DNA of 64,000 nt from Clostridia bacterium (GTDB taxonomy: Bacteria; Bacillota; Clostridia; Christensenellales; Aristaeellaceae). The stretch is from assembly GCA_017937505.1 (NCBI GenBank), contig JAGBDL010000162.1:29-64028 (forward strand). The letters run 5' to 3'. The position numbers were made by a program, and so were the translations under genes. Below the pieces are notes generated by a model that searched no databases, was not told the DNA's origin, and saw nothing but the letters and a program-made list of their open reading frames with translations. Shown one piece after another: positions 24,108-43,466 of this stretch (positions are counted from its first letter, which is position 1; every line of letters begins with the position of its first letter).

Positions 24108-24122
24108 TGCCATGCGAAGGAT

Positions 24123-25124: not shown

Positions 25125-25284
25125 GGTATTCCCTGACAACATTGACGGTTTCTTTTTTTCAGAGTACGATGAATGCAGAAAAACGAAATCCGGAAGGAGC
25201 TTGGCGGTGCGGTCAGCATGAGCATCGGCTAGGAACTGTGATAGATTGAAGCGACAATACGCAAAGCGGAAAGGAGCCTTGACC

Positions 25285-25638
25285 ATGATCGAACTGAACT
25301 ACAAGCGCAGCGGGGATTACCTGCTGCCTGACCTGGGTCTGACTGAAACAGAATAGTTGCCGCTGGGCAAGTATGGCCTGCTCAGACAGTACTATCTGGA
25401 GGAGAATCGCCCGGGCCTGTACACGAGGCTGATTCTCAGCGGAAAGCTGATGGAACATCTTCAGGAGATCGAGCAGACGGCACAGAGCCGCCTCGAAAGC
25501 CTGATGAGCCAGCTGTCGAAGCAAGCGGACGTAACGGAGGAGCTGAAAGCCCGGGATCAGATGGCTTGGGTGCAGCGGATGAACGCACTGCAAGCACAGG
25601 CCGAGGAGATGATCCTGTCGGAGCTGATTTACGCCTGA
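25285..25638 (+). pseudogene. tnpV: TnpV-like protein with in-frame TAG at codon 24
   Basis: MIELNYKRSGDYLLPDLGLTETE-TAG(25354-25356)-LPLGKYGLLRQYYLEENRPGLYTRLILSGKLMEHL is continuous homology across the stop. Confidence 0.7.
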
Positions 25639-25660
25639 TGGATGAAAACGGAGGACAACC

Positions 25661-25951
25661 ATGATGAAGACATCGCTGAGAATCGCTTTGGCCCCTGTGA
25701 TGCTGATCATTCGCCTGACGCTTGGGCTGGCGGCTTTTCTGACCTCTATTGCATCGTCGGTTCTAGGATTATCAGTGTCGCTGTTTGCCCTTCTTGCGGT
25801 GATCGAGTTCTTTATCGGCTACTGGCAGAACGGAATTGCGTTTATGGTTCTCGCGTTTCTGGCAAGCCCCATCGGATTGCCGGCAATCGCCAACCTTCTG
25901 CTGAACCTGCTGGATCATCTCATCGGTTTTCTGGAAGGCTTGGTTTGCTGA
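25661..25951 (+). CDS. small integral membrane protein (follows TnpV in related elements)
   Basis: Three hydrophobic helices. RBS acggagga lies upstream. Confidence 0.6.
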   Translation: MMKTSLRIALAPVMLIIRLTLGLAAFLTSIASSVLGLSVSLFALLAVIEFFIGYWQNGIAFMVLAFLASPIGLPAIANLLLNLLDHLIGFLEGLVC

Positions 25952-26018
25952 AAGTGATTTTGCCTGCGGCGGTTTGTGTGCATCACAGATCGCCGCTTTT
26001 CTTTTTGTGGAGGAACGT

Positions 26019-26198
26019 ATGGCGACCACTCGAATTATTCCGATGCACATCAACAAGGGAAAGACCATAGCACAATGCCTGAAGGCGCGGGTGGAATATG
26101 TGAAGAACCCGGACAAAACGGATGGCGGCGAGCTGATTTCATCGTATGCCTGCTCGCCGGAAACAGCAGACCAGGAGTTTCTGATTGCGCAGAATTAG
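26019..26198 (+). pseudogene. relaxase/mobilisation nuclease, N-terminal 59-codon stub
   Basis: MATTRIIPMHINKGKTIAQCLKARVEYVKNPDKTDGGELISSYACSPETADQEFL is the conserved start of MobA/VirD2-type relaxases. The ORF stops exactly where base composition switches to AT-rich. Confidence 0.75.
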
Positions 26199-26679
26199 TA
26201 TTAAGGAAGATGTGGCACAGAAACTGGATTCACTGTTCAAACATGGAAACCTGAGTCTTCGCATTGCATAAAAGGCAGTTTCACATAAAATTCAAATACG
26301 ACACTGGGGACGCATCTTTTTGCTCTACTTTTAATAATATGGAACGAATGCTTGTTTATTGATGTGAACGCTTCGGATACAGTGGCGATAATTATCAGGG
26401 CAAGAGAATCTGGCCTCACAATTTGCTGTCTGCTCAAACAACTCCGTGGTATTTGATAGTAAATGTACTCGATCGCCTTCTACGTGACATAAGCAGGGGA
26501 TGTATATCGAAGAAGCACAGCAGGCATTTCAGAATTACAAGATTATCTACAGTATCTAACATTACATTATAAGATTGATGTTCTCGTTGTTGACGATGAT
26601 CGTCATTTGAATAAAGAGACTGTTCCATTTGAGAAAAGAAGAGCAGCTAATGATATCGCTTAGAATTACAGTAAAGGCA

Positions 26680-26708
26680 TTGACTTTTGATCTCAATCCA
26701 GCTATTAT
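26680..26708 (+). promoter_or_regulatory. candidate sigma-A promoter of the MTase-HIT-TM-ATPgrasp/MazG operon
   Basis: TTGACT (26680-26685), a 17-nt spacer, then TATTAT (26703-26708). RBS gggagg precedes ATG 26757. Confidence 0.5.
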
Positions 26709-26756
26709 TACTGTAAAATAGGATTTGTATATACAAAATGGGAGGCTGATTATTGG

Positions 26757-27650
26757 ATGAGTAATTACTCCCCTCTTCGGTATCCGGGAGGAAAATCGGC
26801 ATTGTATCCTGTTATTTCCAGCGTGATAGAATCCAATAGAATGAAGCACTGCATATATGTCGAACCTTTTGCTGGCGGTGCAGGCATTGCATGGAGTTTG
26901 CTGATTGATGGCGTAGTAGATCGTGTGATTATTAATGATGCAGATAAAGCTGTATATTCATTTTGGCGAGCTATTGTGGAATCTACGCAATGGTTTGTTG
27001 AGAAGATCAGGACAACGCCGATAACGGTCGATGAATGGCGAAAACAAAGGGATATTCTCCGAAAGTCAAAGAAGTACAGCAAAGAATTGGGTTTTGCAAT
27101 GTTCTTTTTAAATAGAACTAACCGATCAGGCATTTTGGATGCTGGTCCCATAGGCGGTTATGATCAGGCAGGAGAGTATAAAATTGATTGCCGCTTTAAC
27201 AGAGATGAATTAATCGGGAAAATTATAAAGATTTCTGAATACCGGAACAACATCAGAATATACAATCAAGATATTTCGACATTCTTGAAACGGTTTTTGC
27301 CTCAAGGAAACGAAAACAATGAGATATTTGTGTACTTTGATCCACCCTATTATGAAAAGGGTCAGCGATTATACATGAATTCTTTTTCGAGTAAAGACCA
27401 TGAGAGATTAAGGGATTCGGTTGCCCTTCTTGATTGCAGGTGGATCATGACATACGACGACAAGTCTGAGATTGAAGAGCTGTACGAGAGTTATCAGAAG
27501 TGTCGCTTTTCAATCAATTATAGTCTGTCGAATAAAAGAAAAGGTGGAGAACTGATGATTTATAAAGACACATCGTGTATTCCATCTTCTGAGGTTATTT
27601 CAAAATTATCTAAATCAGTTACTTTTGGTAATATTTGTTTGGAGGGATAG
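26757..27650 (+). CDS. D12-class (Dam-like, alpha group) N6-adenine DNA methyltransferase
   Basis: PLRYPGGKSAL, EPFAGGAGIA (motif I), NRTNRSGI, FVYFDPPYY (motif IV). Confidence 0.9.
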   Translation: MSNYSPLRYPGGKSALYPVISSVIESNRMKHCIYVEPFAGGAGIAWSLLIDGVVDRVIINDADKAVYSFWRAIVESTQWFVEKIRTTPITVDEWRKQRDILRKSKKYSKELGFAMFFLNRTNRSGILDAGPIGGYDQAGEYKIDCRFNRDELIGKIIKISEYRNNIRIYNQDISTFLKRFLPQGNENNEIFVYFDPPYYEKGQRLYMNSFSSKDHERLRDSVALLDCRWIMTYDDKSEIEELYESYQKCRFSINYSLSNKRKGGELMIYKDTSCIPSSEVISKLSKSVTFGNICLEG

Positions 27651-27653
27651 AAA

Positions 27654-28280
27654 GTGGATAACTGTAGATTTTGTGGCATAGCTAACGGAAGTATGGATAC
27701 GCAAAAACCTGAAAACGTGAAGATTGCAGAGAGCGAAAAGTTTTTTGCCATTTCCTCGGTTGGTGCGTTGGTGGAAGGTTGGACACTCATTGTGCCCAAA
27801 CACCACTGCTGCTCTATGAAGAACTTATATACCGAAGAAGAGTTTTCTACATTTTCGAATCAACTTGTAAGCATATTGACTGCTTGCTATGGCCCCGTCA
27901 TTGCTTTTGAGCATGGTCCCAACCGTGAAGGCTCTGATACTTCTTGCGGAACTGACCACGCACATATTCATATCGTGCCATATCGTTCTTTGATGGCAAA
28001 ACTTGATGATATGGAAATGGAATGGCAGACATGTAGTGCGTCCCAAGTGTGTGAACTTGTTGGTAGAAATGAGTACCTGTTTTATTGTGAACCGGGTACA
28101 AAATGGGACAATCCGACCGGTCGGGTACATGTTTTGAAAGAGCCCATATCTCAGTTTTTTAGGAAGGTTATTGCTGAAGATTTGGGCGCGCCTGACAAAT
28201 TCAACTATAAAACTAACCCCGATACAACGCTTACGCTGAAAACCATTGAAAGGGTAAGATACTATTGTGCTAAGCATTGA
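27654..28280 (+). CDS. HIT-family nucleotide hydrolase/transferase
   Basis: N-terminal CRFCGI, and the histidine triad GTDHAHIHIVPY. GTG start lies 3 nt after the MTase stop. Confidence 0.85.
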   Translation: MDNCRFCGIANGSMDTQKPENVKIAESEKFFAISSVGALVEGWTLIVPKHHCCSMKNLYTEEEFSTFSNQLVSILTACYGPVIAFEHGPNREGSDTSCGTDHAHIHIVPYRSLMAKLDDMEMEWQTCSASQVCELVGRNEYLFYCEPGTKWDNPTGRVHVLKEPISQFFRKVIAEDLGAPDKFNYKTNPDTTLTLKTIERVRYYCAKH

Positions 28281-28291
28281 GAGGTTTAGAA

Positions 28292-28885
28292 ATGACAGAG
28301 AACAAAACCAATACAAAAGAAGAAGCAGCGGAAGTGACTAAAAGCGCCTCTGTACCGGATGCTATTGAAACAAAGGTAAATACTGATGGCCGAAAGCCCT
28401 ATGAGTGGCAATCAAAATACCCTAAAGAGGCACGAAACGAAATGCTGTGGGAAGCTATATATATTGGTGCAGTTTTGGTCGTGTCCTTTTTGGGATTATT
28501 TCTTAATTGGAGCGGAGTATTCAGTTGCTTTCTGAAAGTAGATCCAACAAGAGTGATTGCCTTCGAAGGAATTTTGCTATATTTCCTTTCTGGCTTGATG
28601 GGAGGCACTATCTTTGGGATAAAATACTTTTATAGAGTCGTAGCACGAGGGTATTGGACACAGGATAGGAAATACTGGAGAGTTTTTTCTCCATGGATTT
28701 CTGCATGTGTGGCTTTGGTTGTTGGGTGCATGATTGTTTCTGGTTACATTAACGCGACTCAGACTCCATCTACTGCGACTGGGGTTTGCGTAGGCTTCAT
28801 TTCTGGTTATTTTGCAGATGAAGCAGTTGGCAAAATGTCTGAAGTAGCAACAGCTCTGTTTGGCTCCAGTAGTAAAGTAAAATGA
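28292..28885 (+). CDS. 4-TM membrane protein, unknown function
   Basis: Hydrophobic helices AIYIGAVLVVSFLGLFLNW, GILLYFLSGLMGGTIFGI, ISACVALVVGCMIVSGY, GVCVGFISGYF. ATG follows gagagg. Confidence 0.7.
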   Translation: MTENKTNTKEEAAEVTKSASVPDAIETKVNTDGRKPYEWQSKYPKEARNEMLWEAIYIGAVLVVSFLGLFLNWSGVFSCFLKVDPTRVIAFEGILLYFLSGLMGGTIFGIKYFYRVVARGYWTQDRKYWRVFSPWISACVALVVGCMIVSGYINATQTPSTATGVCVGFISGYFADEAVGKMSEVATALFGSSSKVK

Positions 28886-28892
28886 GGTGCTT

Positions 28893-31436
28893 ATGATGGC
28901 ACATGTATCTGCACTAAAGCCTATTAGTCCTATGATCTGGGTTACACAGTCAGGTTTTGAGATTATTAATTCTGAGCAGGTTACAATTAGTCGTGTGGGA
29001 GAAAAAGCTTTTGGATTAGCTTCCTTGCCTCCCCAATGGACTCTTCCTTATTTTGTAATCTCGGACAAACTATTTGATGACTATGTCGAAAACCGTGATA
29101 TTGAGAGTGTAGCATCAAAATGGGCTAAAGGAGTAAATGCTGCAGCAGCAAGCTGCACAATATCATCCGACGATCAGATTATTGTGAGATCTAATGCTCA
29201 TTCTGAAGGATTGGCAGAGCGTGGTAAATTTATTTCTGTAGAGGGAACATTTCAAGAGTGGCCTAAATTGGTCAAACAGTGTTTTGATGACTCGTTAGAG
29301 CAGGATGATTCGGGAAATGTCCACATGCCGGTGATTATTCAAAAAAGAGTGACAGCATTGTCTCGTGGACATATTTCAAATGAACGACGTGTAGCCGAGG
29401 AAAATCGTGATTGGAAGGGCGAGATTGAGGGGGCAATTCCAAGGGTATTCTCTGTTTCATTGCGCAGCTGGCGCAAAAAAGTGAAAGTCGATGGTTATAT
29501 TGATTCACCGCTAATGTGCCCTGGAGATAAGGTAATTAGGGATGTATTGTCCATTCCGTGCACATGGGCCACGAATCAACGAATCCGTGTGCATTTCGAG
29601 TGGATATATGACGGTTATTACATTTATCTAGTTCAGGCTGACGAAGAGACAGTGGCTGATGGCATCAATCCAATGAAAGGTGTACATAACACATTGGCTG
29701 CAAAAGAATCTGCTGATACAGGATTTCCTTATTGCGTGCATCCGTTGAAAGCAGAAGATGCAGAGCGATATAAGAAATATGCAAAGATTCAGAATCCGCT
29801 ACTATATCATCGTATAGAACAGCGCACTGCTCCACTTTATATTTTGGACGATGTGGAAACCCTTGAGGCATTGACAAAGAATACAATAACAGCTGGATTA
29901 GAAAAGGATTTACGCATTCTTACATCTCACTCCCTCATTATTCGAACCGATATTGCTACCGACAATAAAGAGGAACGACAACTACTACCGCGAACCAATG
30001 GTATTAAAGATGTAGAAGCAGCTAAGAAGTGGTTATGTGAGAGTTATGCTGAGTTATTGAAACAACCAGGCCAAAAGCCGATTTTTATAATGCATAACTA
30101 CATACCCGCTTTCTCCTCGGCTTTTGCCTATGCGAGTCCAGGCGATAAATTGGTTCGAATAGAAGCATTGTGGGGATTACCTGAAGGCCTGTATTATTAT
30201 AGTCACGATAAACATGTGGTGGATACAAAGCATGCAGATGCCGGAAAAATGGCTCAAAAAGAGTTTGAGGTACAATCGCATCGAAACTACAAGAAATACT
30301 TTGTTTTTCCGATGGAAGACGAGAAATGGGAAGTACAAAGTCTGGCAAATCCCTATGATTGGAGATCTGCTATTCCGAAGGAAGATTGGATAAAAGAAAT
30401 TGCGTATGTTACACGTCGGATTTCTGAAGAAGAAGGAAAAAGTGTCAGTGTAATGTGGTTTGTCGGTGTAGATGATACAACCTACGGATGCAATGTATTT
30501 CCGTGGTATCATGAACCGTTTGAGTATAACGAAGAGCAGACTACGCCACGCAATAAGCTTTCATTCGAAAGGACTCTTGCTATCCACACATTAAAGGACC
30601 TTGAACAATTGGAGAAGCTGGCAACGAAGCCCAATGCAAGTATTAGGAACATTCAGATTCAGCCGACGGATGCCAATATTTTGAGAGATCGGTCTATCAT
30701 TGACAGAATCGGAAATGCTGCGAAAGATCTAGGCGCAAACATTTTACTGGAGGGCGGAATCCTCTCACATGCGTATTACCAGTTGGTTCGTACAGGCGCA
30801 AAGGTTGAAGTTAGACATGCTTTTGAGAAAAAGCAAAGTTTGGAGTTTAACAAGCTAGTAAGAGATAAGATTCCTGAAAAAATACAGTGTAACGGTGAGG
30901 AAGCTGTAACCGCCCAACTAGATAAAAGTATATTGAATCGGCTACTGAAACGTAAATTGGTTGAGGAGGCGTTAGAAGTCCTCGATTCAAAAGAGGAAGA
31001 TAATCTTGTTGTGGAACTTGCAGATATTCTAGAAGTTCTTGACGGAATTCTTGGGCAGCATCAGATTGATATTCAAACAGTCTTACAGCAAAAGCAAAAG
31101 AAGCGTGAAAAAGTGGGTGGATTCGAAAAGGGTGTCTATCTGAAAACGACCTCCAGCCGTGCTATCTCAAGTAAAGGAAAAATTGTTATTGATAGCAACC
31201 CTGTAGACACAAAGCAAAAGGTGTCAAAGTCAACGGATCTGCGCAAGTATTCGACTGCTAATGAATCTTTAACACGAATCAAAGTTCCCGTCACTTTGGA
31301 TAAATGGGAAATTCGTCCAAGTGTCAGAGCAAAGAATATTGATATCGTTCTTAGAGGTGAACGTAAACAAGGAATTTGGCAAATTGAAATCTCTGTTTTC
31401 GAAAAAGCAGAGCAAATGTCGTTCTTCGACATGTAA
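28893..31436 (+). CDS. large fusion protein: PEP/pyruvate-binding (PPDK_N-like) ATP-grasp region + MazG-like all-alpha NTP pyrophosphohydrolase + unknown C-terminal domain
   Basis: ATP-grasp-like motifs VGEKAFGLASL...PYFVIS, IIVRSNAHSEGLAERGKF, MPVIIQKRV, EALWGLPEGLYYY. MazG-like block FNKLVRDKIPEKI...LVEEALEVL...VELADILEVLDGI (ExxE...ExxD). The start lies 8 nt after the TM gene stop. Confidence 0.65.
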   Translation: MMAHVSALKPISPMIWVTQSGFEIINSEQVTISRVGEKAFGLASLPPQWTLPYFVISDKLFDDYVENRDIESVASKWAKGVNAAAASCTISSDDQIIVRSNAHSEGLAERGKFISVEGTFQEWPKLVKQCFDDSLEQDDSGNVHMPVIIQKRVTALSRGHISNERRVAEENRDWKGEIEGAIPRVFSVSLRSWRKKVKVDGYIDSPLMCPGDKVIRDVLSIPCTWATNQRIRVHFEWIYDGYYIYLVQADEETVADGINPMKGVHNTLAAKESADTGFPYCVHPLKAEDAERYKKYAKIQNPLLYHRIEQRTAPLYILDDVETLEALTKNTITAGLEKDLRILTSHSLIIRTDIATDNKEERQLLPRTNGIKDVEAAKKWLCESYAELLKQPGQKPIFIMHNYIPAFSSAFAYASPGDKLVRIEALWGLPEGLYYYSHDKHVVDTKHADAGKMAQKEFEVQSHRNYKKYFVFPMEDEKWEVQSLANPYDWRSAIPKEDWIKEIAYVTRRISEEEGKSVSVMWFVGVDDTTYGCNVFPWYHEPFEYNEEQTTPRNKLSFERTLAIHTLKDLEQLEKLATKPNASIRNIQIQPTDANILRDRSIIDRIGNAAKDLGANILLEGGILSHAYYQLVRTGAKVEVRHAFEKKQSLEFNKLVRDKIPEKIQCNGEEAVTAQLDKSILNRLLKRKLVEEALEVLDSKEEDNLVVELADILEVLDGILGQHQIDIQTVLQQKQKKREKVGGFEKGVYLKTTSSRAISSKGKIVIDSNPVDTKQKVSKSTDLRKYSTANESLTRIKVPVTLDKWEIRPSVRAKNIDIVLRGERKQGIWQIEISVFEKAEQMSFFDM

Positions 31437-32312
31437 ACTATTGGCTCCTATCAACAAGTGTAAACTTGGTTCGATAGGGGCACTGTAGAATGACTTTTTT
31501 ATACTGGATATATGTCCAATCGCTCTAACAGCAGTAAGCGTCAAACCTACAGGCGGGGAGCAAAATTGGCGCAGAGAGTATCGTTCTCCGCGCCAAACTT
31601 GTTTTCACTGATTCAACTGAACATTCCAGGGTAGCAGCTGCGGTACCGTCAAGTATTATGCGCAAATTCATTTACAAGCCTGGCAGGACTCCGTCTGCAC
31701 AGGGTAGGGGAATCTGCCCTTGATTACCCAATAGCAGAAGGCAGAGTGCGCGTCAAGGGCGGCGAAGCCGCTTGCAAAGCCCTTGACGCGAGTTCTGTTT
31801 TCTGCTATCAACCGGCCATAGCTGAGCTCGATGTGGCGATTTCATCTGGTCCCGAACACGACATAGTTTTTCAAGTTTGCTTGTTTTTCTGGATCCCAGT
31901 TTTTCAAGTACTATGGATAAGTATCGCACGATTAGAGGGAGGCATCAGGGCGCGGAATTATTGAGCGGTTACGATGATCTGCCGAGACTGCTTCTTTTTT
32001 GTATGAATCATCCCGATATTCTATAAAATGCCCTATGCCCGTCAAAGCTCAGGAAGCACGATAGGCGTAGGGCGTCTTTTCATTTTTTGGCACAAGCCCG
32101 GCAGACGAATGGCGCAGGCACTCGTCACAACCGCAGAGCCTGCTCTGCCTTACAGGGGATTGGGGGGCGAGCCTCCAACAAGCAAAGTGCAAATAGTAAA
32201 ACGTTTGCCCTGCTTGCCAATATTATGCCAAATTTGAGATAATAGTCGTTATGTCAAATTGTAAACGCTAATATAAAAGTGAGCCACTTTGTAGCGAAAC
32301 GCTCATGAAAAA

Positions 32313-34604
32313 TTGAGCCACCGGAAACAGCCCACTATAATAGTCTCAGACTATATAGGGGGGCGAACAAAGGTGGTTATTACAGTGGAGATTTACAAAC
32401 AGATTCGCAAGATGCGGCTGGACGGCATGAGTCAGAGGCAGATCGCAGCAACGCTCCACATCTCCTGCAATACTGTCAAGAAATACTGGGACGGTAACAG
32501 CGTCCCCTGGGAGAGGAAGGACTACTCCAGGGACGCCTCCGTACTTACTGAGGATGTGGTAGCATTTGTCAGACAGTGTCTGGATGAGGATAGCCAGTGT
32601 AGATCCAAGAAGCAGCATCACACCGCCAAACGTATCTACGACCGGCTGGTAGCCGAATGCGGCTTCACCGGCGGCGAGACAACCGTCCGGCGACTGTTGA
32701 AAGAACTTCGCGAGAAGAGCCAGGCGACATTTGTTCCGCTTATCTTTCCGGCAGGAGATGCCCTGCAGATTGACTGGGGTGAGGTATCCGTCTACTTGAG
32801 TGGCGTCAAAACTACCGTCAACCTCTTCTGCGCGCGACTGTGCTACAGAGGTGCTCCCATGGCTCTGGCATACCGCAGACAGAATGAGGAGAGCTTCCTG
32901 GATGCGCTGGTTCAGGTATTTCAATATTTCGGCGGAGTCCCCAAACGGGTCATCTTTGACAACGGCAAGGTCGCCGTCAAGGACGGCTTCGGCGCCCACG
33001 CCCGGAAGCAGGCGGGTTATGCTGCTCTGGCCGCTCACTACGGTTTTGAAGCGGTATTCTGCAATCCGACTTCCGGCAACGAAAAGGGTTTGGTAGAAGG
33101 TCTGGTGGGCTATATTCGCCGCAATGTCTGCGTTCCGGTTCCCAAAGTGGAAACCATGGAAGATCTGAACCGGATGCTCCTGGAAAAGTGCCTGAACTAC
33201 CTGTCCCACCAAGTTCGCGGCAAAGAATCCTCTGTGGGTGAGATGCTCAAAAAGGAGCGAGAAAAGCTGTACCCTCTGCCCGGCTATCCCTTTGACCCAT
33301 GTAAGCGCGCCACCGGCCGGGTGGACAGGTTCTGTACTGTCCGCTTTGATACGAATAACTACTCTGTTCCTGCTGTGTACTGCGGAAGAGAGGTATCTCT
33401 TAAAGCCGGTCCCGAAACGGTCACCATCTATTTTGAGGGGCAGTGTATTGCCCAGCACCGGCGGTGTCTGGATAGAAAACAGAACATCTACAAGCTGGAA
33501 CATTACCTTCCCTTGCTGGAGAAGAAAGGCAGAGCTATCTTCTACGCCAGACCGGTACAGGAAACCCTGCCTGACTACTTCCTGAATTGGCTGCAGAAGC
33601 AGGATTTGTCCCCAAAAGAACTGGTTGAGATTCTGATCCGTTGTCGGGAGGAAGACTGCGATGTCATTATGACCGAGGCACCCCAACACGCCGCTCCTGT
33701 CCAAATTGAGGATACTGTTGTCGTGCAAGCAGTAGACCTGCATACCTTCTGCGCACATGAACATCCTGAATGCAGCGAACTGACAGAGTGGTTGATTCTC
33801 GAATGGCTGAGACCGGTCATGAAGAAGGAACCCGCTGTCATTCACCAGCACATCTGCTTTATGAACGGATTTGCCCGGTATCTGAACAATGTGGGAAAAC
33901 CGGCATTCATGATGCACAACAGGTTCGCCTGCGGCCGGACACTATTCGTTCCTTATATCTTCTCGGACGATGATTTGACTCGCCTCTTTCATGTCATTGA
34001 CACAAACGGAAAGCATGGAAACCCGTTTCAGCGGATTCAGTTCAGCGTGTATTACAGGCTGATCTACACATGTGGATTGCGCCCAAACGAAGGACGCACG
34101 CTCAGAAAAAAGCATGTGGATCTCCATGCCGGCGAGATTGTCATTGAATGCTCCAAAGAACGCAGAAGCAGAATCGTCGTGATGTCGGATGACATGAGGG
34201 CGCTGGCAGCCAGATACAGCAGCCTGCTGAACGCATGCTTTCCGGATACGGAATTCTTTTTCCCCTCAAAGCATGGCCGGGAGTATCCGGCGACTTTCTT
34301 CCAGACAAACCTTGTCCGCTTCTTTGCCGAGGCCAATCCTGCCATTCCTGCAGACTTCCTGCCTCGTGTGCGCGTCTATGATCTTCGTCACCGCTTTGCC
34401 ACAGCAGCCATTCACCGCTGGCTTGAGCAGGGAAAGCCGGTTGATACCATGCTGCCTTATCTCCAGATGTACATGGGGCACGCAAGGCTTTCTTCTACCG
34501 CGTACTATATCCATCTTTTGCCGGAGCATCTGGTCAAAGCAAGCGGCATGAACTGGGAAGAAATTGGTGACATCCTTCCGGGGGTAGAGCTATGGCAAGA
34601 CTGA
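32313..34604 (+). CDS. chimeric ORF: IS21 IstA transposase (about aa 1-487) fused in frame to the C-terminal catalytic part of a tyrosine recombinase
   Basis: IstA part: VEIYKQIRKMRLDGMSQRQIA (HTH), IDWGEV, FDNGK...NEKGLVE (DDE). After ...VQAVDLHTF come recombinase motifs: GLRPNEGRTL, VYDLRHRFAT, MGHARLSSTAYYIHL. Confidence 0.7.
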   Translation: MSHRKQPTIIVSDYIGGRTKVVITVEIYKQIRKMRLDGMSQRQIAATLHISCNTVKKYWDGNSVPWERKDYSRDASVLTEDVVAFVRQCLDEDSQCRSKKQHHTAKRIYDRLVAECGFTGGETTVRRLLKELREKSQATFVPLIFPAGDALQIDWGEVSVYLSGVKTTVNLFCARLCYRGAPMALAYRRQNEESFLDALVQVFQYFGGVPKRVIFDNGKVAVKDGFGAHARKQAGYAALAAHYGFEAVFCNPTSGNEKGLVEGLVGYIRRNVCVPVPKVETMEDLNRMLLEKCLNYLSHQVRGKESSVGEMLKKEREKLYPLPGYPFDPCKRATGRVDRFCTVRFDTNNYSVPAVYCGREVSLKAGPETVTIYFEGQCIAQHRRCLDRKQNIYKLEHYLPLLEKKGRAIFYARPVQETLPDYFLNWLQKQDLSPKELVEILIRCREEDCDVIMTEAPQHAAPVQIEDTVVVQAVDLHTFCAHEHPECSELTEWLILEWLRPVMKKEPAVIHQHICFMNGFARYLNNVGKPAFMMHNRFACGRTLFVPYIFSDDDLTRLFHVIDTNGKHGNPFQRIQFSVYYRLIYTCGLRPNEGRTLRKKHVDLHAGEIVIECSKERRSRIVVMSDDMRALAARYSSLLNACFPDTEFFFPSKHGREYPATFFQTNLVRFFAEANPAIPADFLPRVRVYDLRHRFATAAIHRWLEQGKPVDTMLPYLQMYMGHARLSSTAYYIHLLPEHLVKASGMNWEEIGDILPGVELWQD

Positions 34605-35662
34605 AGAAGCCGGTGGACGAACGCCTGTTCATGCTGATTAAGAACTGGCTTGGCGTATATCTTCCGACAGAGCGCAAGGCCAGTCCATGCACCATTGCAA
34701 ATTACAGACAGGCGCTGAACCAGTTCCTCACCTATCTGGCAGATAGGAACGGAACAAAACTGGCTGCTGTCACATTTGATATGATGAATGCGGATTCGCT
34801 CAATGATTATCTGAATCATCTGCAAACAGAGCAAAACTGCACTCGTGCCACAAGAAACAACCGGCTTGCCGCCTTGCGGGCATTCATTTCCTACGCTTCG
34901 GCCTGCAGTCCGGAATACGTTGCAACAGCGTTGGATGTAGCCAGAATCAAGACACAGAAGGATGATCCGTTTTCCAAGGTGGAATACCTGACTGAAAACG
35001 CAGCCAGGGCCATCCTTGCAGCACCCGATGTGTCCACTGCCAAAGGCCGCAGAGACCAGACCATGCTCACCGTCCTGTATGACACCGGCGCCCGGATTAG
35101 CGAGCTGCTGGAGCTGCATCTTTCTGATCTGCGGCTCAGCACAACAACTCCGACTGCAACACTTCTCGGCAAAGGCGGTGTCGTCCGCACGGTTCCTCTG
35201 GCAAAAGAAACCGTGTCCATGCTGTACAGGTACCTGGCGGAGTTTCACCCGGATGAGCTGTTGACATCCTGCGCGCTGCTGTTCTTTACCAGCCACAGGA
35301 ACGGCCGGCAGAAGATGTGCGCGCAAACCGTGCGGGCATGGATGGACAAATACAGAGAGTCTGCCCGGTTGAAATGCCCGGAAGTGCCGGAACATATTCA
35401 TCCTCATATGTGGCGGCATACCCGGGCGATGCATCTGTACCAGCATGGCATGCCGCTGGAACTTGTAGCACAGTGGCTTGGTCACAGGAATCCAACCACA
35501 ACGCTCGTTTATGCTTATGCGGATACAGAGCACAAGCGCAAGGCCATTGAAAAGGCCATGGAACACAGCCAGGTGACAACGGGATTATCCGCCGGTTCCA
35601 GGCAGCCGGCATACCAGATTACCGATGAGGAGCTGCTGAAGCGTCTGTATGGGCTTGATTAA
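34592..35662 (+). CDS. tyrosine recombinase/integrase (XerD-like)
   Basis: N-terminal SAM-like domain (ANYRQALNQFLTYL), GARISELLEL, HPHMWRHTRAMHL, LGHRNPTTTLVYAY. Overlaps the upstream ORF by 13 nt. Confidence 0.85.
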   Translation: MARLKKPVDERLFMLIKNWLGVYLPTERKASPCTIANYRQALNQFLTYLADRNGTKLAAVTFDMMNADSLNDYLNHLQTEQNCTRATRNNRLAALRAFISYASACSPEYVATALDVARIKTQKDDPFSKVEYLTENAARAILAAPDVSTAKGRRDQTMLTVLYDTGARISELLELHLSDLRLSTTTPTATLLGKGGVVRTVPLAKETVSMLYRYLAEFHPDELLTSCALLFFTSHRNGRQKMCAQTVRAWMDKYRESARLKCPEVPEHIHPHMWRHTRAMHLYQHGMPLELVAQWLGHRNPTTTLVYAYADTEHKRKAIEKAMEHSQVTTGLSAGSRQPAYQITDEELLKRLYGLD

Positions 35663-35904
35663 CCGGCAAATTATTATCTCAAATTCCGCCCTGCTCGCGC
35701 CTGTTGCGGCAGGGCAATCCTCTTTCCGGTACAAAATATTATGTCAAATTGTTTTGGCACAAAGCCTTGTAGCAGCTAAGTTTCTGGATGATTTTTGAGA
35801 TAATAAATTATTTGCGATAACCAATGTTATCTCAAATCAAAACGCCACAATGCGTTTGACCAACATGGCTGTTTATCTCAATATCGGAGAGCTTTGTGTC
35901 CGAT

Positions 35905-36561
35905 TTACCGGTGCAATTGCTCAAGAAATGTGATGGCTTCATTCACGGTAGAAAAGGTTTTGCATTGCTTACACAGCCATTGGTTTCTTTCATCTGTGTC
36001 TTCCAGTCCGGGCAGACCATCCGAAAGAAGGTTACACAGTATCTTTTCTGCATGTTCCACTGCGATAGGATAACGCTCCGCTATGCGTGCAGTTGCTTCA
36101 TAATCTCCTTTGACATAGGAGGCTTCTCTTGCAACAACCTCTGCAAGTATTCTCTCCTTGTCTGCAACCTCCAGCACCGGCGGCGAAAACATTTTGTAGT
36201 GGAGCATCAGCCAATACTCGATACAACCTGTGGTCATGAGCAGGCGAACTCTGATATTCGGATTCCTTCTGAGCCTTCGAAGCCTCTTGATCATCGCCAG
36301 CCGCTGCTCCCATTTCCCGATGTCCTTTGTCTCCACATCAAAGAAAAACCATATCTCATCTGTGACCTCTGCGTAATCCCGGAACTTTGGATCTTTCTGA
36401 AAGCGCCTGTCCGCTTCTTCAAACAATCCGGTTGCAGATGGACGCTTTATGACGGCAACATTTGCAAACCTCTGCTTCAAAAAGTCGGTATATGCCTGCT
36501 CGCTCTCTCCTTCACAGAAGACAAAGATCAGCGGCTTGGCGTGTTTGATCCGGCGGGGCAT
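35905..36561 (-). CDS. RloB-like protein (AbiLii-like)
   Basis: PLIFVFCEGESEQAYTDFL and EIWFFFDVE match the RloB/Toprim-like pattern. Its start overlaps the stop of the upstream ATPase gene. Confidence 0.75.
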   Translation of the reverse strand: MPRRIKHAKPLIFVFCEGESEQAYTDFLKQRFANVAVIKRPSATGLFEEADRRFQKDPKFRDYAEVTDEIWFFFDVETKDIGKWEQRLAMIKRLRRLRRNPNIRVRLLMTTGCIEYWLMLHYKMFSPPVLEVADKERILAEVVAREASYVKGDYEATARIAERYPIAVEHAEKILCNLLSDGLPGLEDTDERNQWLCKQCKTFSTVNEAITFLEQLHR

Positions 36562-37859
36562 TATTCCACCTCCTCAATTTCAATGTTGGGGGTGGCACCG
36601 TATTTACCAAGCAGATAGCCTTTCCGAATATTCTCAGTTGTCCGAGTTGAAAAGTCGCTGATGCTGTACAATTCAGACGCGCCGTCTTCCTGATCCTTAT
36701 CTACAAAATACAGCTGGTCTTTTCGGAGCAGTTCCATGTTCAGCAGCTCCGTGTTATGCGTGGTGAAAATCATCTGCGCACCGAATGGATTTGTTCTTTT
36801 GCTTTGGAACTTCGATACAATGAAGCTTACCAGCAGAGGATGAAGTTCCCGCTCAATCTCATCCACCAGCAAAACGCCGCCATTGGCCAATACAGACTCA
36901 ATCGCCGGTGCTATTGACATGAGTTTTCTGGTGCCGTCAGATTCGTCTTCCAGCTCAAGCGAATAGAGCTGTCTGCTTCCATCCTGATTCCGGCCTTTAT
37001 GCTTGGAAGTCGCCTTGACCTCGCCCATCTTGAGATGAACCTCGGAGTTATTGGATGTTTCGGAAAGCGCCTGCCTAAACTGCATCAATGCAGCCCTGAC
37101 CCCTTCGGGGATTTCATCCGGAAAGGCGGTGCTATCCTGAATTTCCTGGCTGTTGATTTCAAACTGCATTTCCTCAATACCCAGATCAGCAGCCTTGGCA
37201 TAATCGGAAATGGCTTTCAGCATGTTGGTATCGCTGGAGTAGTCAAGAAGCTGACGCGGGATATCGGAATAGTCCCTGGAGAAGAACACCTTTTCTCTGA
37301 ACCATCTCATCGCGCGGGAACAATCTGCATCATTCATGGTGCAGGCAACGGAGAAGAATAGCTGGTTTTCAGCAACAGCTCCCTTGATGAGCTCCCGTCT
37401 CGCTTTATCCTTGCTGAACTCAAAATCCTGTCCTGACCTTGAGAACACCAATGCTTTCTGTCCCTTGGGCGCATGGTACAGTGACTCTGCAAATACTTTT
37501 TCCCTGGTTGCAGAAAAAGAGTACCAGTATCTGACGTCGTCCAGTGTATAGTAGAATTCAAATTCAGTAGGCTCTGACGCCGAATAGTCATTGAGGGCAA
37601 AGGGAACGACAGGAATAGCAGCCTTTTCGTGCTGCGTCCGCTGCGCGTTTCTGATGAATTGAACTGCGAGCCAGAACGCCCGTATCACATTGCTCTTGCC
37701 GCCGCCGTTCTTGCCAAAAATCGCAGCCCCCGGCAGAAGAGTGATGCTATGAAATGGAATGAGAATGCTCTTTAAGGCTCCCAGACCTGTTGCTTCCATG
37801 GAGAGAACGGCATCATCTCGAAACGATCTGTAATTCCTGAAGCGAAATTCGATGAGCAT
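36561..37859 (-). CDS. AAA_21-type ABC-like ATPase (AbiLi/RloA-like)
   Basis: MLIEFRFRNYRSF, GKNGGGKSNVIRAF (Walker A), LLVDEIERELHP (Walker B), IFTTHN. ATG 37859 is preceded by ggaggtg. Confidence 0.8.
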   Translation of the reverse strand: MLIEFRFRNYRSFRDDAVLSMEATGLGALKSILIPFHSITLLPGAAIFGKNGGGKSNVIRAFWLAVQFIRNAQRTQHEKAAIPVVPFALNDYSASEPTEFEFYYTLDDVRYWYSFSATREKVFAESLYHAPKGQKALVFSRSGQDFEFSKDKARRELIKGAVAENQLFFSVACTMNDADCSRAMRWFREKVFFSRDYSDIPRQLLDYSSDTNMLKAISDYAKAADLGIEEMQFEINSQEIQDSTAFPDEIPEGVRAALMQFRQALSETSNNSEVHLKMGEVKATSKHKGRNQDGSRQLYSLELEDESDGTRKLMSIAPAIESVLANGGVLLVDEIERELHPLLVSFIVSKFQSKRTNPFGAQMIFTTHNTELLNMELLRKDQLYFVDKDQEDGASELYSISDFSTRTTENIRKGYLLGKYGATPNIEIEEVE

Positions 37860-38109
37860 AGAAACACCTCCGCTACCAGTATAATCACTGGTCGAGAAAA
37901 ATACAATTGGAAAAATCAAAAAAATTGATAATTCTTCTTCGATTTTATCCGAATCCATGCGGGCCTGAGTCTTTATTTGATTTCAATGTAGTTTTCCCGA
38001 AACACTCATATAGCGAATTGGTGAATTCTGTGTTGCGGAGAAGCATCCTTGCATTTCTCGTGGGCTTGGGTCACAATAGAAGCAGACAATTCGAGCAGGA
38101 GGGATTCTT

Positions 38110-38409
38110 ATGACGATCAAGAAGGTGCTGAATGTGTTCAGCGGATACTTGAAGCGGGATACTGCCGTTGAGGTGGTGGAAACGACCAGAGGCCATGTTG
38201 TGATGATCTGGGACAGTCGGATGAAGGATTGGAGCGATGTCTATCACTGCCCCACCGCCGAAGAGTTGATGAACACGCTGCTCTTCTGCAAGGAGGTTTT
38301 CGACGAGTATTGTTTTACCCATGGCGAACGTGATCTAATGGACGATGAACGGGTGCAGATAACGCAAATGCGGCAGGAGATGCAGCGCCTGTGCGAGACG
38401 GGCGAATGA
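38110..38409 (+). CDS. hypothetical protein
   Basis: 99-aa ORF with RBS gcaggaggg upstream. No recognisable motif. Confidence 0.45.
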   Translation: MTIKKVLNVFSGYLKRDTAVEVVETTRGHVVMIWDSRMKDWSDVYHCPTAEELMNTLLFCKEVFDEYCFTHGERDLMDDERVQITQMRQEMQRLCETGE

Positions 38410-38654
38410 AACCTGTTAGGTACAAAACCTTTCTCGCCGACCATGAGCGCGATATTTCTGTCGCAGATGGCGAGGCAGATATTTGATACGCAGAGTGTGC
38501 CCAAGTAATTAATGATCAGTAAGGCGAAGAACGAATGTTTGCTTCTTGGGTGATAATCAAATAGCGAGAATTATCTGGAATCAATCAGAGAATGATCACA
38601 AAATTGAAATTAGAAAAGGAAGAGCAGTAAATAAAAGGAAGGAAACATCAATTA

Positions 38655-38684
38655 TGGACAGAATTGTATTACTGGATGTATAAT
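38655..38684 (+). promoter_or_regulatory. candidate sigma-A promoter of the PHP-ATPase gene
   Basis: TGGACA (38655-38660), an 18-nt spacer, then TATAAT (38679-38684). Confidence 0.4.
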
Positions 38685-38741
38685 TAGGAAAAAGCGAGTT
38701 GCTCTTGTGTAATGTGTAACGATATAAAGGATGTGAAAGAC

Positions 38742-40865
38742 ATGAAAATCGATCTGCATTGCCATACAAAGAAGATTAAAAAGGGAGATCCGACTACGAG
38801 AAATGTGACTGCAGAATTGTTCAAAGAGAAGATTACCCGAGCAGATATCCGAATTGCGGCGATAACCAATCATAATCATTTTGATGTTGAACAATATAAG
38901 CAGTTAAGAGATTGCGTTGAAGAATGCTGCGACGTTTGGCCTGGAGTAGAACTTGATATAGTTGGCCAGTCACAAAAAAGAGGGCATTTGATTGTTGTAG
39001 CCAACCCTGATAATCTAGAACAGTTCAACTCTTCTGTCCGCGAACTAATTAATAATCAAGATGAGAATACTGTAGTATTCAGCCTTGATGAAGTTTACAA
39101 GAATCTTGATAAATGCGATGTAATATATATATTTCATTACAATAAAACGCCGAGCGTTGATGAGGAAGATATTGAAGAACTGCGTTCAAAGGTGTCGAAG
39201 AAGGCCAGGATATTTGGTGAACCGTCTAATCTGCGTTCATTGGGCGTATATGCCAATCTTGGTGGAAATGTAATTATGGGGAGTGATGTGAGAGATTGGA
39301 GTGATTATGAAAACAAAAATTTCTCTGAATTGAGACTTCCAGTATCATCGTTTGCCCAGTTCTGTAAACTGGCGGAGAAAGATGAAACAGTCGTCAATAC
39401 ACTTCTTGGCAGTAAAACGTATAATGAATACACCGCGAATCCGTATCCTGGGGTGAGCATTAAGATTCCACTATATAGGGATGTCAATATTATTTTTGGC
39501 CAAAAGGGAACTGGAAAGAGTGAAATACTGAAGTCTTTGATTAGTGTATTAAGGAATCAAGGAGTAAAATGTGAAACATACATCGGCGGCAATCGTGAAA
39601 CTCAGTTTGGAGAATTTCTTAAAACGAGCGATATGACTAGACTAAGCAGCAAAGTTGGCGTTGACGAATGCAGCAATGAGTTCAATTATATAATGAAGTT
39701 TCGCGAACACATGCCTACTCTGTTTAGCGACTATTTGGAATGGTATGAAACCAAGGATAATAGTAAAAACAAGCAGAGAATGAAGATCACGGAGGCACGA
39801 ATAACCCCGCAAAGAGACCCATCCATATACGATGAATATAAGGAGGAAAGTAAAACTAGCCAAGCAATTTGTGGAGCATTGTCAAAAATAAGGATTGAAG
39901 AATACTTTAGTGAAGAGGAGAGCGAGCAATTCAGAAAACTAGCGATGAAGCTCGTTAGCGCAACAAGAGAAGCTCAATTTGCTGAATTAGTTTTAAATGA
40001 ATCTGTCATGTTAGCGAATAAGAGCATTGAGACGATTAAGAATATAGCTGACAAGCATACCAACACTAAATCAAAACCATCTACAACAGGCTTCACGGAG
40101 TATACATGTGCTAGAATTCAACTGAAAAAATGTGTGGATAGAATCCTGAAAAGCATTGAAGCTGATGGGCAACATGAAAGAATGCTGATTGGAACAATAG
40201 AGAATAAGGGAAAGATATATATTCAGAGCACATATAAGATGCTTGATGCAAAGTCAAGAAGAGAAGAATTCAATATCGGAATTAATAAACTGAAGAGAGT
40301 CAAAGAGCTTCTGAAGGATTTGTCAAAGCAATGGTTTGCCAATGATATTTCTAGCGTGTTATCTGAGCTGAAAGAGATTTGCGACAAGGAGGGAATAGTA
40401 TCGACATCTAGTTTTCTAGGTCTGTCTAAACAGACCATACTAGAAAACGGTGAAGAGTATAATCCCTCTAGTGGCGAAAAATCAATTCTGTTGCTTCAAA
40501 AGGTTTTGAATACGGCAGCAGATGCTTATTTGTTAGACGAGCCTGAGTTGGGAATGGGGAATTCTTATATCGATTCGACAATTCGTCCGCAGTTAGTTGC
40601 ATTGGCAAAGCAGAGAAAGATTGTTGTTGTTGCTACCCACAATGCAAATCTTGCGGTAAGGACATTACCATATTGTTCTATTTTGAGAACGCATGATAGT
40701 GGAGTATATAGTACATATGTAGGAAATCCATTTAATGACCATCTGGTCAATATTCTTAATAAGGACGACATCAAAAGCTGGGCATTTGAGAGTATGCACA
40801 CATTAGAGGGTGGTCATGAGGCGTTCTACGAAAGGAAGGAAATATATGAGTCTGGTTCAGTATGA
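38742..40865 (+). CDS. PHP-domain phosphoesterase fused to an ABC/SMC-type ATPase
   Basis: PHP part: MKIDLHCHT, AITNHNHF, PGVELD. ATPase part: IIFGQKGTGKSEIL (Walker A), SSGEKSILLL (signature-like), AYLLDEPELGMG (Walker B), VVATHNANL. Confidence 0.75.
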   Translation: MKIDLHCHTKKIKKGDPTTRNVTAELFKEKITRADIRIAAITNHNHFDVEQYKQLRDCVEECCDVWPGVELDIVGQSQKRGHLIVVANPDNLEQFNSSVRELINNQDENTVVFSLDEVYKNLDKCDVIYIFHYNKTPSVDEEDIEELRSKVSKKARIFGEPSNLRSLGVYANLGGNVIMGSDVRDWSDYENKNFSELRLPVSSFAQFCKLAEKDETVVNTLLGSKTYNEYTANPYPGVSIKIPLYRDVNIIFGQKGTGKSEILKSLISVLRNQGVKCETYIGGNRETQFGEFLKTSDMTRLSSKVGVDECSNEFNYIMKFREHMPTLFSDYLEWYETKDNSKNKQRMKITEARITPQRDPSIYDEYKEESKTSQAICGALSKIRIEEYFSEEESEQFRKLAMKLVSATREAQFAELVLNESVMLANKSIETIKNIADKHTNTKSKPSTTGFTEYTCARIQLKKCVDRILKSIEADGQHERMLIGTIENKGKIYIQSTYKMLDAKSRREEFNIGINKLKRVKELLKDLSKQWFANDISSVLSELKEICDKEGIVSTSSFLGLSKQTILENGEEYNPSSGEKSILLLQKVLNTAADAYLLDEPELGMGNSYIDSTIRPQLVALAKQRKIVVVATHNANLAVRTLPYCSILRTHDSGVYSTYVGNPFNDHLVNILNKDDIKSWAFESMHTLEGGHEAFYERKEIYESGSV

Positions 40866-41163
40866 TGTGGTTTTGGAAGAAAGAGATGAAAAAGACATTC
40901 TTGTTTTCCAAATTGATCGTGATGAGTATCCAGATGGATTTGTTGTAAACCTAAATGAACCGACTGGGCAACAGGATTTTATGAATGTGTTTGCAATAAT
41001 TCTCAGACAGTTGGAAAAGGAAGAAATCGAGTTTAAGCTGAGAGTAGCAGATGGTTTTGATCGAACGCTCTATAAGGATGTATGTAAAGAGTATATTGAT
41101 AGTTTAAATGCAGAAATCAGGGATATGCGTGTAAAGATTAGTAATGAATTGGCTGTAAACTGA
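40846..41163 (+). CDS. small acidic hypothetical protein, translationally overlapping the PHP-ATPase gene
   Basis: ATG 40846 follows aaaggaagga and overlaps the upstream ORF by 20 nt. Same AT-rich composition as that ORF. Confidence 0.55.
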   Translation: MSLVQYDVVLEERDEKDILVFQIDRDEYPDGFVVNLNEPTGQQDFMNVFAIILRQLEKEEIEFKLRVADGFDRTLYKDVCKEYIDSLNAEIRDMRVKISNELAVN

Positions 41164-41196
41164 TTGCTGATTCCGAATCAGATAGTCGGCCTTCCC

Positions 41197-43276: not shown

Positions 43277-43427
43277 GCTGACATGCTGCAGGCGGCATCA
43301 AAGGCCGCTGCTTTGCAGCAGAATGCATGCAACAACATACTAGCAGGGGCCTATCCCCTTGTCAATGATGACGTTCGGAGGCCCTGTTTTTTATCCCCTT
43401 TTTGATCAAAAAAGTGCTGGAACGAGG

Positions 43428-43466
43428 AAAAAGCTGCATTTCATGACAAAAAAGTTGCGTCTCATG
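43428..43466 (+). promoter_or_regulatory. pair of imperfect direct repeats with 21-bp phasing (candidate LytTR binding sites)
   Basis: aaaaagctgcatttcatg (43428-43445) and aaaaagttgcgtctcatg (43449-43466) match at 15/18 positions. A TAGAAT -10 lies at 43498-43503 with a poor -35. Confidence 0.4.

Follow-up and report, generated by a model that had tools for sequence, protein, structure and literature searches.

The low-GC stretch at positions 26,199–41,165 of the 64,000-nucleotide DNA analysed here (hereafter the window) lies within a 38,102-bp element; in its host, an uncultured high-GC gut Clostridia bacterium, this element interrupts the sporulation gene sigK. With a probability of roughly 0.75 we regard this stretch as a mosaic, put together stepwise from defence-type cassettes of horizontal origin and the debris of recombinases, that forms part of the cargo of a 38.1-kb skin-like (sigK-intervening) element. 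The window belongs to a metagenome scaffold of 128 kb (ENA ERZ28654807, scaffold_337; window base 1 corresponds to record base 58,801), and the nearest relatives of the genes in the flanks and in the element are found in metagenome-assembled genomes of uncultured gut Clostridia and Oscillospiraceae-like bacteria.

Both edges of the stretch are marked by an abrupt change in composition. In 200-bp windows the GC content falls from 0.505 (26,000–26,199) to 0.385 (26,200–26,399) on the left and rises from 0.375 (41,000–41,199) to 0.610 (41,200–41,399) on the right. The mean GC content of 26,199–41,165 is 0.446, and none of the 188 1-kb windows outside the stretch reaches a value of 0.45 or below (mean 0.581, sd 0.054, minimum 0.459). 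The third-codon-position GC of the methyltransferase cassette and of the PHP-ATPase pair described below is 0.32–0.41 versus 0.84–0.92 in host genes. An earlier note on this DNA had described a sharp GC drop where the relaxase homology ends, and this drop is indeed located at 26,200, the homology stopping at 26,201. The profile is far from uniform and the codon GC deviates as well, so that the AT-rich island of 15 kb postulated in the note is a real compositional entity; it is, however, not AT-rich throughout, because its segments range from 0.376 to 0.523 (26,202–32,026, 0.413; 32,238–35,820, 0.523; AbiL genes, 0.479; 38,500–41,165, 0.376). Likewise, the expected GC recovery near 41,164 is sharp, but it leads to the level of the remaining element (0.538) and not to that of the host flanks (0.61–0.64). 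No Rfam family and no tRNA was detected in or beside the stretch, which thus lacks a tRNA-type integration site.

The stretch and its immediate surroundings comprise the following components, given with their window coordinates:

21,421–25,951, plus strand: mobilizable-element-like backbone with ParA, ParB, DUF6017 (Rep-like), two unknown genes, TnpV and DUF5699.
26,019–26,198, plus strand: relaxase stub, 59 of about 478 codons; a G-to-T change, located 3 bp ahead of the breakpoint at 26,201/26,202, turned GAG into its TAG stop.
26,202–32,026, plus strand: segment A, 5.8 kb, GC 0.413, in place of the relaxase body and carrying a four-gene cassette (conserved unit 26,678–31,437).
32,238–35,820, plus strand: segment B, 3.6 kb, GC 0.523, with IS21 IstA and tyrosine recombinases, flanked by an imperfect 17–21-bp target repeat.
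35,905–37,859, minus strand: AbiL pair, consisting of AbiLii/RloB (35,905–36,561) and the AbiLi/AAA_21 ATPase (36,561–37,859).
38,110–38,409, plus strand: gene of 99 amino acids without family match that travels with the PHP-ATPase in contigs L178 and L179.
38,742–41,163, plus strand: PHP-ABC-type ATPase of 707 amino acids (38,742–40,865) and an overlapping partner of 105 amino acids (40,846–41,163).
41,197–43,276, minus strand: right flank with a GHKL histidine kinase and a LytTR response regulator, part of the shared backbone.

The history of these components can be retraced by comparison with related sequences. The 4.8-kb block from ParA to the relaxase has a nucleotide identity of 88–90% to L002, where its surroundings differ. 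The relaxase reading frame runs on past window position 26,201 in both L002 and L178. No relaxase 3′ fragment is present anywhere in the window, and a functional relaxase is missing, with only 59 codons left and no coupling-protein or type IV secretion domains in the element. L178 and L179 are two independent contigs whose PHP-ATPase protein sequence is identical to that of the window. The gene order of L178 is an intact relaxase of 478 amino acids, RloB, AAA_21, the 99-amino-acid gene, the PHP-ATPase, its small partner, the kinase and the LytTR regulator. Positions 1–238 of L178 correspond to window 25,964–26,201 (92% identity), positions 239–1,494, which encode the relaxase body, are absent from the window, and positions 1,495–1,706 match window 32,027–32,237 (84%), showing that the sequence just past the relaxase stop has been retained. 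The remaining part (1,686–9,584) corresponds to window 35,821–43,718 (98%). L179, which begins past the relaxase, aligns in this manner to window 32,137–32,237 and 35,821–43,718; it backs the junction without segment B, not the relaxase part.

Judged by these alignments, segment A has replaced relaxase codons ~61–478, which represents a replacement of the body and not an insertion between two halves. The AbiL and PHP-ATPase pairs are older residents of the backbone, though AT-rich there too, and predate the break, because both follow the intact relaxase in L178. Segment B, in turn, is a separate insertion in the intergenic region between relaxase and RloB. For the right join the kinase gene is uninformative, as its relatives in species genomes are only 53% identical, and the left join has no exact match in JGI metagenomes; megablast gave no matches to plasmids or phages. 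L002 harbors, upstream of its ParA-relaxase block, a gene for a NERD/UvrD-type helicase of 708 amino acids (3,908–6,034; PADLOC ‘Helicase’, 2.2e-107), and its relaxase is itself cut, at another point, by a different TnpV-bearing insertion.

The backbone thus occurs elsewhere with an intact relaxase, followed by AbiL, the PHP-ATPase pair and the kinase/regulator pair, and two later events gave rise to the version in the window. The 5.8-kb segment A with its cassette replaced relaxase codons ~61–478, and the 3.6-kb IS21/tyrosine-recombinase insertion was placed in the next intergenic region. With the relaxase lost, this copy would have become fixed. Elements of this sigK family may have begun as mobilizable ones targeting sigK, and the gain of a defence cassette may have immobilised the present copy by destroying its relaxase.

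Segment B has the character of recombinational debris. The composite IS21/tyrosine-recombinase element that had been noted among the defence modules was recovered by domain matches, namely a 743-amino-acid open reading frame (ORF; 32,373–34,604), in which a truncated IS21 IstA (NCBIfam transpos_IS21, 3.9e-72; up to 93% identity to IstA proteins of 467–485 amino acids) is fused in frame to a fragment of a tyrosine-recombinase catalytic domain, and a second tyrosine recombinase (34,592–35,662). We considered the fused ORF as a new type of recombinase and rejected it, since 120 of the 120 best homologues are plain IstA proteins of 428–485 amino acids; as far as these homologues tell, the fusion is a one-off rearrangement scar and not a gene family. 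Segment B contains no istB and no two clean IS21 terminal inverted repeats. The inverted repeat I2 was discarded as an IS21 end pair, because its right arm (35,810–35,837) is partly target sequence that is also present in L178. The same 21 bp of L178 (1,686–1,706) align to both window 32,217–32,237 and 35,821–35,841 (CCAATrTTATsyCAAAT; left copy diverged). The target duplications of IS21 are expected to comprise 4–8 bp; the 21-bp flanking repeat is longer than that and looks more like the att core of a tyrosine recombinase.

The placement of the stretch within a genuine sigK-intervening element, as it had been suspected in the earlier note, is documented by the split sigK gene, the 12-bp cores and the serine recombinase:

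20,609–21,265, plus strand: sigK 5′ fragment of 218 amino acids with sigma-70 region 2 and a truncated region 4, ending with ...GISRSYVSR, then RR and stop.
21,245–21,256: left 12-bp core repeat TATGTATCGCGC (attL), followed by an inverted-repeat arm (CGCCGCTAATGTAAACGAT).
57,423–57,626, plus strand: promoter-like box, ribosome-binding site and ORF of 49 amino acids; the box (GCA-N17-CATAnnnT) and the ribosome-binding site are conserved.
57,624–59,228, plus strand: intact SpoIVCA-like large serine recombinase of 534 amino acids with Resolvase, Recombinase and Zn_ribbon_recom domains.
59,347–59,415 (core 59,347–59,358), plus strand: right 12-bp core and sigK 3′ fragment YVSRIEKKAMLRLKEAFEKGTV, followed by a stop.

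The direct repeats at 21,245 and 59,347 are located inside sigK codons. The core TATGTATCGCGC occurs only at these two positions, its copies are identical, and the inverted-repeat arms lie on the element side. Both sigK halves join in frame via the common 12-bp core, such that ...GISRSYVSR (to 21,256) continues with YVSRIEKKAMLRLKEAFEKGTV and the stop codon; the expected junction of the rebuilt gene reads ...TCGTATGTATCGCGCATCGAGAAA... or, in the longer, alternate writing, ...CGGTCGTATGTATCGCGCATCGAGAAAAAGG.... The region 4 match of the 5′ fragment stops at profile position 40 of 50, and the break falls within the recognition helix of region 4.2, between YVSR and IEK, for which reason the 5′ fragment alone is unlikely to work.

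The serine recombinase occupies the right edge of the element, adjoining the sigK 3′ end, and stops 119 bp before the right core. Its relatives, retrieved from 80 loci, have an identity of 72–96%. In at least 30 of the 80 loci the motif YVSRIEK[KR]A... is found 30–130 bp downstream of the recombinase; in others the 5′ part of sigK is located in inverted orientation beside it. Where both ends lie in the fetched DNA, the related elements have a size of 4.6–9.8 kb. The closest comparison is provided by L088 (3,729–11,700) with a 96% identical recombinase and host flanks of 86–94% nucleotide identity. Its element comprises only 7.2 kb and carries two glycoside hydrolases, a GH2-like protein of 811 amino acids and a rhamnosidase-like protein of 757 amino acids, and the assumption that the cargo varies between related sigK elements is thus borne out. 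The sigK::ParA junction of the window is repeated in a second sample (contig L187).

Upstream of the recombinase, the TGA stop of the 49-amino-acid ORF VKRSQALVVRCEYPSTEKSLACLLEESFRLYLARILASPDGHAVSCGR (57,477–57,626) overlaps the ATG start of the recombinase gene. According to a crude ORF scan, such a small ORF is present in 22 of the 51 related loci with usable upstream sequence, about 19 of which encode the same conserved peptide. The CATAnnnT box resembles the −10 region of mother-cell sigma factors, presuming the consensus of B. subtilis. The small ORF might encode a directionality factor or regulator under a promoter of the mother-cell type, and we offer it as a lead only. That the recombinase is intact, that both cores are identical and that so many relatives occupy this site speaks for an element that is active and maintained. 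In analogy to known systems, the whole element would be cut from the mother-cell chromosome in sporulation, thereby rebuilding sigK, and would be kept in the spore. The functional consequence of this excision is not obvious; it is more apt to regard the sigK site as a stable landing pad than to assume a functional split between germline and soma, because the excised circle would remain in a terminally differentiated mother cell that is about to lyse.

The element shares with the skin elements of Bacillus subtilis, Clostridioides difficile and others the split sigK, a SpoIVCA-like recombinase beside the 3′ fragment, short core repeats and a size within their range. Skin elements of 2.6–48 kb have been reported, which share only the recombinase at the edge next to the sigK 3′ fragment and have no common cargo (bioRxiv 10.1101/2022.02.25.481979). 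The present element differs by the position of the split in the region 4.2 helix (between YVSR and IEK), by a backbone that is mobilizable-element-like (ParAB, Rep-like, TnpV, relaxase) and not a prophage, and by several protein-based defence modules. Defence-related cargo as such has a precedent, as the C. difficile skin element contains both a CRISPR array and a toxin-antitoxin pair of type I (PMC5961336). In the literature searched we found no description of multi-system defence islands in skin elements, nor of the four-gene cassette in segment A.

At least three defence-type modules had been assigned to the stretch, i.e. the methyltransferase-HIT-membrane protein-ATP-grasp/MazG operon, the RloB and AAA_21 genes and the PHP-ABC ATPase. 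All of these domain calls were reproduced, and a PADLOC scan was run on them. The cassette of segment A consists of four genes:

26,757–27,650, plus strand: D12-class N6-adenine DNA methyltransferase of 297 amino acids (Pfam PF02086, 8.8e-22).
27,654–28,280, plus strand: HIT-family protein of 208 amino acids with CwfJ_C_1 and HIT domains, HAHIH at residues 102–106 and a best PDB HIT match of 5.9e-6.
28,292–28,885, plus strand: membrane protein of 197 amino acids with 3–4 hydrophobic spans.
28,896–31,436, plus strand: ATP-grasp/MazG protein of 846 amino acids, with an ATP-grasp domain, alpha/beta domains with an invariant GGxLSH, a MazG-like domain at about 677–740 and a low-confidence C-terminus.

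The methyltransferase matches the PADLOC models PD-Lambda-5_B over its whole length (5.3e-115, residues 2–283) and MTase_II (3.8e-88). No nuclease domain was detected in the HIT, the membrane and the 846-amino-acid protein with Pfam, NCBIfam, PADLOC and fold searches, and the cassette is hence not a classical type II restriction-modification system. The AlphaFold model of the 846-amino-acid protein has a mean predicted local distance difference test score (pLDDT) of 76.8. In Foldseek its ATP-grasp domain matches rifampin phosphotransferase, HpeI and PPDK (9goj, 7.1e-9; 5hv6_A, 3.6e-8; 5hv1; up to 4e-7; PPDK, 1e-3), the Pfam match to PPDK_N is weak and restricted to 2 of 33 relatives, and the protein family has no PDB sequence match, neither as a whole nor for residues 545–760. 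In the MazG-like domain the residues E690/E691/E694 and E707/D710/E713 (EExxE, ExxD) are invariant. A PRA-PH/MazG match is present in 31 of the 33 relatives (best 4.4e-6), the protein of the window scoring 18.8 bits and thus below the cut-off of 21.3 bits; MazG structures were retrieved in the fold search with probabilities of 0.91–0.99, but with E-values above 0.3. The non-coding tail of segment A contains a 30-nt inverted repeat at 31,731–31,808 (83% complementary, 18-nt loop) without Rfam match.

The cassette is widely scattered and conserved. Among 185,579 species genomes we found 112 confirmed matches in many phyla, including Bacillota, Pseudomonadota, Campylobacterota, Desulfobacterota, Nitrospirota, Bacteroidota, Acidobacteriota, Actinomycetota and Planctomycetota; an exhaustive search yielded 663 cluster representatives at E ≤1e-30. 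All contexts looked up contain the four genes with their order unchanged, down to an identity of 40%, the HIT protein being 48% and the membrane protein 41% identical. The HIT and membrane genes are located directly upstream of the gene for the large protein in 60–61 of the 69 evaluable loci, and a D12 methyltransferase is encoded nearby in 53 of these 69, often on the other strand or downstream; at least 12 phyla are represented. In L082 methyltransferase and HIT protein are fused to a single protein of 506 amino acids. A distant copy in L083 (1–5,115), whose membrane protein is 41% identical to that of the window, is located directly downstream of the Druantia helicase DruE (PADLOC, 1,953 bits). 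Serine-recombinase trios, a tyrosine integrase and toxin-antitoxin genes represent other contexts, and MADS components, KwaB, PD-T4-6, PD-Lambda-5_A and CapP are among the defence families matched by neighbouring genes.

Several known systems resemble parts of the cassette. The PD-lambda-5 system of E. coli is a compact two-gene system that combines restriction-modification with abortive-infection-like properties (PMC9519451). The methyltransferase of the cassette matches its component B over the whole length, but it has no component A as a neighbour and is instead linked (and fused in one relative) to HIT, membrane and ATP-grasp/MazG proteins. The nucleotide-binding ATP-grasp domain has its best structural match in the family of rifampin phosphotransferase and PPDK/PEP-synthase, from which the large protein differs by the absence of a sequence-level match, the C-terminal fusion with a MazG-like domain and an unconfirmed swivelling domain. 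Dam-derived m6-dAMP is the trigger of the PUA-Cal-HAD system, which depletes deoxynucleoside triphosphates (dNTPs) and has rare variants that possess a MazG effector (bioRxiv 10.64898/2026.01.15.699771). The common trait is the coupling of host-DNA adenine methylation to nucleotide-directed phosphoesterases (MazG in rare PUA-HAD variants) without a recognisable nuclease. BREX is a nuclease-free methylation-based system. The cassette contains no PUA, calcineurin-like, HAD or BREX protein and encodes the methyltransferase itself, so that the likeness to PUA-Cal-HAD and BREX concerns a possible logic only.

Tentatively, we propose that the cassette (26,678–31,437) could be a previously undescribed, nuclease-free anti-phage system. 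The D12 methyltransferase would mark the host DNA, and HIT protein, ATP-grasp phosphotransferase and MazG would act on nucleotides, either sensing methylated ones that are released on infection or depleting the pool of nucleoside triphosphates (NTPs) and dNTPs. Methylated nucleotides set free by a phage that degrades the chromosome, or unmethylated invading DNA, might switch on the phosphotransferase, HIT and MazG activities, thereby draining or altering the NTP/dNTP pool; the membrane protein would be an anchor or a second effector. The lack of a nuclease in the cassette argues against a restriction-type mechanism, and the methyltransferase-HIT fusion together with three nucleotide-directed activities suggests nucleotides as substrate or signal. 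A model of a ‘methylome-derived alarm plus pool depletion’ is plausible by analogy, given the precedent of PUA-Cal-HAD (bioRxiv 10.64898/2026.01.15.699771). BREX-like exclusion would be an alternative for the mode of action of the cassette.

The two older modules are closer to catalogued systems. The RloB/AAA_21 pair is, by its domain matches, AbiL, a known defence system (PADLOC AbiLi 1.4e-89, AbiLii 1.7e-15; Pfam RloB and AAA_21), and the genes abut at 36,561. As in the abortive infection system AbiL of Lactococcus, an AAA_21 ATPase and a RloB-type protein are encoded adjacently on one strand; here, however, no more than a part of the AbiLii model is matched. The PHP-ATPase matches PDC-M49A (8.4e-35 and 2.1e-19, full length) and, weakly, TrlF, and Ppl (8.8e-5) at its C-terminus only. 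Together with the 105-amino-acid partner it would constitute a catalogued candidate resembling PDC-M49. Its family comprises 1,670 matches, and an overlapping partner of 102–111 amino acids is kept in the relatives (41% identity between window and L180). In L180 to L185 the pair is located beside a type I restriction-modification system and an SpbK-like TIR protein. The combination of an N-terminal PHP phosphoesterase with a C-terminal ABC/SMC-type ATPase in one protein of 707 amino acids is reminiscent of Ppl, the single-gene PHP and ATPase system of PADLOC, and of PDC-M49. The conserved overlapping partner of 102–111 amino acids without family match represents a difference, and PDC-M49 itself is unvalidated. 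Neither the 105-amino-acid partner nor the neighbouring 99-amino-acid protein matches a PADLOC model. AbiL, as an ATPase-plus-RloB abortive-infection pair, and the PHP-ATPase pair, as a Ppl/PDC-M49-like ATPase-phosphoesterase, most likely act as independent abortive-infection or nucleic-acid-targeting modules. In the proposed scenario each module of the stretch would act on its own against phages or other invading DNA.

Defence genes on mobile elements and elements that split sigK are both well known, and the overall layout is ordinary in this respect. The comparison with L178 and L088 provides a join-by-join view of the accretion of defence cargo, in the course of which the present element has lost its own mobility gene. 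The analysis furthermore documents a large single-site family of sigK elements in gut Oscillospiraceae-like Clostridia, whose common small ORF and promoter-like box make regulated excision testable beyond the model species. The part most worth following is the compact, widely scattered cassette with its unusual enzymology (ATP-grasp phosphotransferase-MazG fusion, HIT protein, membrane protein, Dam-like methyltransferase), which is located outside the defence catalogue searched.

Several observations weigh against our reading of the stretch as a stepwise mosaic of defence-type cassettes in a skin-like element. This scaffold is the only one to show either junction of segment A, and L178 and L179 are short contigs that do not reach far enough to place them in sigK. 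Three of the four cassette proteins (HIT, membrane and 846-amino-acid protein) match no PADLOC v2.0 model, including PD-Lambda-5_A. A phospho-histidine (PEP-utiliser swivelling) domain, suggested by GGxLSH with the invariant H625, was not confirmed, as there was neither a PDB sequence match for residues 545–760 nor, with a separate model of these residues, a significant fold match for residues 545–650. The cassette is often located among housekeeping genes (L168, L170), and about 8–12 of 130 sampled neighbours match defence families at 1e-10, a modest enrichment in a sample without control set. For the PHP-ATPase the match is to no more than a candidate family without validation, and for the 105-amino-acid partner there is none at all. 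Mother-cell excision is presumed by analogy, in a host that is itself only presumed to sporulate.

The mosaic has to be weighed against the scenario of the earlier note, in which a single 15-kb defence island entered the relaxase gene of the sigK element in one piece. This scenario would explain the sharpness of both low-GC ends and the coincidence of the left end with the relaxase break. The truncation of the relaxase at this edge proved correct, as L002 and L178 continue the frame past 26,201, but only 26,202–32,026 goes with it. AbiL and the PHP-ATPase pair (the right 5.3 kb), together with the 99-amino-acid gene and the kinase, directly follow the intact 478-amino-acid relaxase in L178 (98% identity), and the genes of L179 are arranged likewise downstream of the relaxase. 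A remnant from just past the relaxase stop survives at 32,027–32,237, no 3′ half of the gene lies to the right of the stretch, and the four segments span GC values of 0.376–0.523. A unit insertion is accordingly very improbable, and the further suggestion of the note, a mosaic from serial insertions, holds true with segments A and B as separate later events relative to L178 and with GC contents that differ by segment. It is extremely improbable that the low-GC segments are an assembly chimera on a high-GC scaffold. The window stems from a metagenome scaffold and provides the sole record of the segment A joins, but the joins of AbiL, PHP-ATPase and kinase recur in two independent assemblies and the sigK::ParA join in a third; moreover, the sequences on either side of segment A are collinear with L178, so that two precise joins bracketing the relaxase body would be needed. 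The cassette might also have no role in immunity and represent an orphan methyltransferase with nucleotide-pool housekeeping, e.g. the clearing of N6-methyl-(d)ATP from recycled methylated DNA, or a selfish addiction module. MazG and HIT proteins are classic house-cleaning hydrolases (so named in one source), no nuclease or other obvious killing domain was detected, and the frequent housekeeping surroundings and the modest defence enrichment among the neighbours fit this view. Its sparse and patchy distribution (112 among 185,579 species genomes, many phyla), its occurrence on mobile elements and beside DruE, the strictly linked membrane protein and the foreign composition in this host are, by contrast, typical of defence cargo and unusual for housekeeping genes, thus making a non-immune role unlikely. 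We are doubtful, finally, that the sigK location is without developmental meaning, i.e. that the element is a fixed relic or its host non-sporulating and that the defence genes are mere cargo of an immobilised element. This view would fit the destroyed relaxase, the lack of any visible sporulation gene but sigK in the window, and a split that costs sigma K only its last 18 residues. On the other hand, the 534-amino-acid recombinase is intact, the 12-bp cores with their flanking inverted repeats are identical, and dozens of species have related recombinases at this very site, in one orientation or the other. The small ORF and the CATAnnnT box upstream of the recombinase are conserved, and the break inside the recognition helix makes a functional fragment unlikely.

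The element contains a further defence candidate outside the low-GC stretch:

53,172–54,569, plus strand: AAA_14/DUF4143 ATPase (PADLOC PDC-S01, 1.9e-190).

Its right half also harbors accessory cargo at 43,624–50,300, namely three paralogous lipoprotein genes (443, 441 and 354 amino acids; weak DUF6034), followed by membrane proteins, an ABC ATPase and an ECF-type sigma factor. On the host side, the region 12,500–21,200 to the left of sigK (sugar ABC transporter, hydrolase, AraC regulator, AP endonuclease) has a GC content of 0.59 versus 0.64 in the first 12.5 kb of the window and may represent older acquired DNA.

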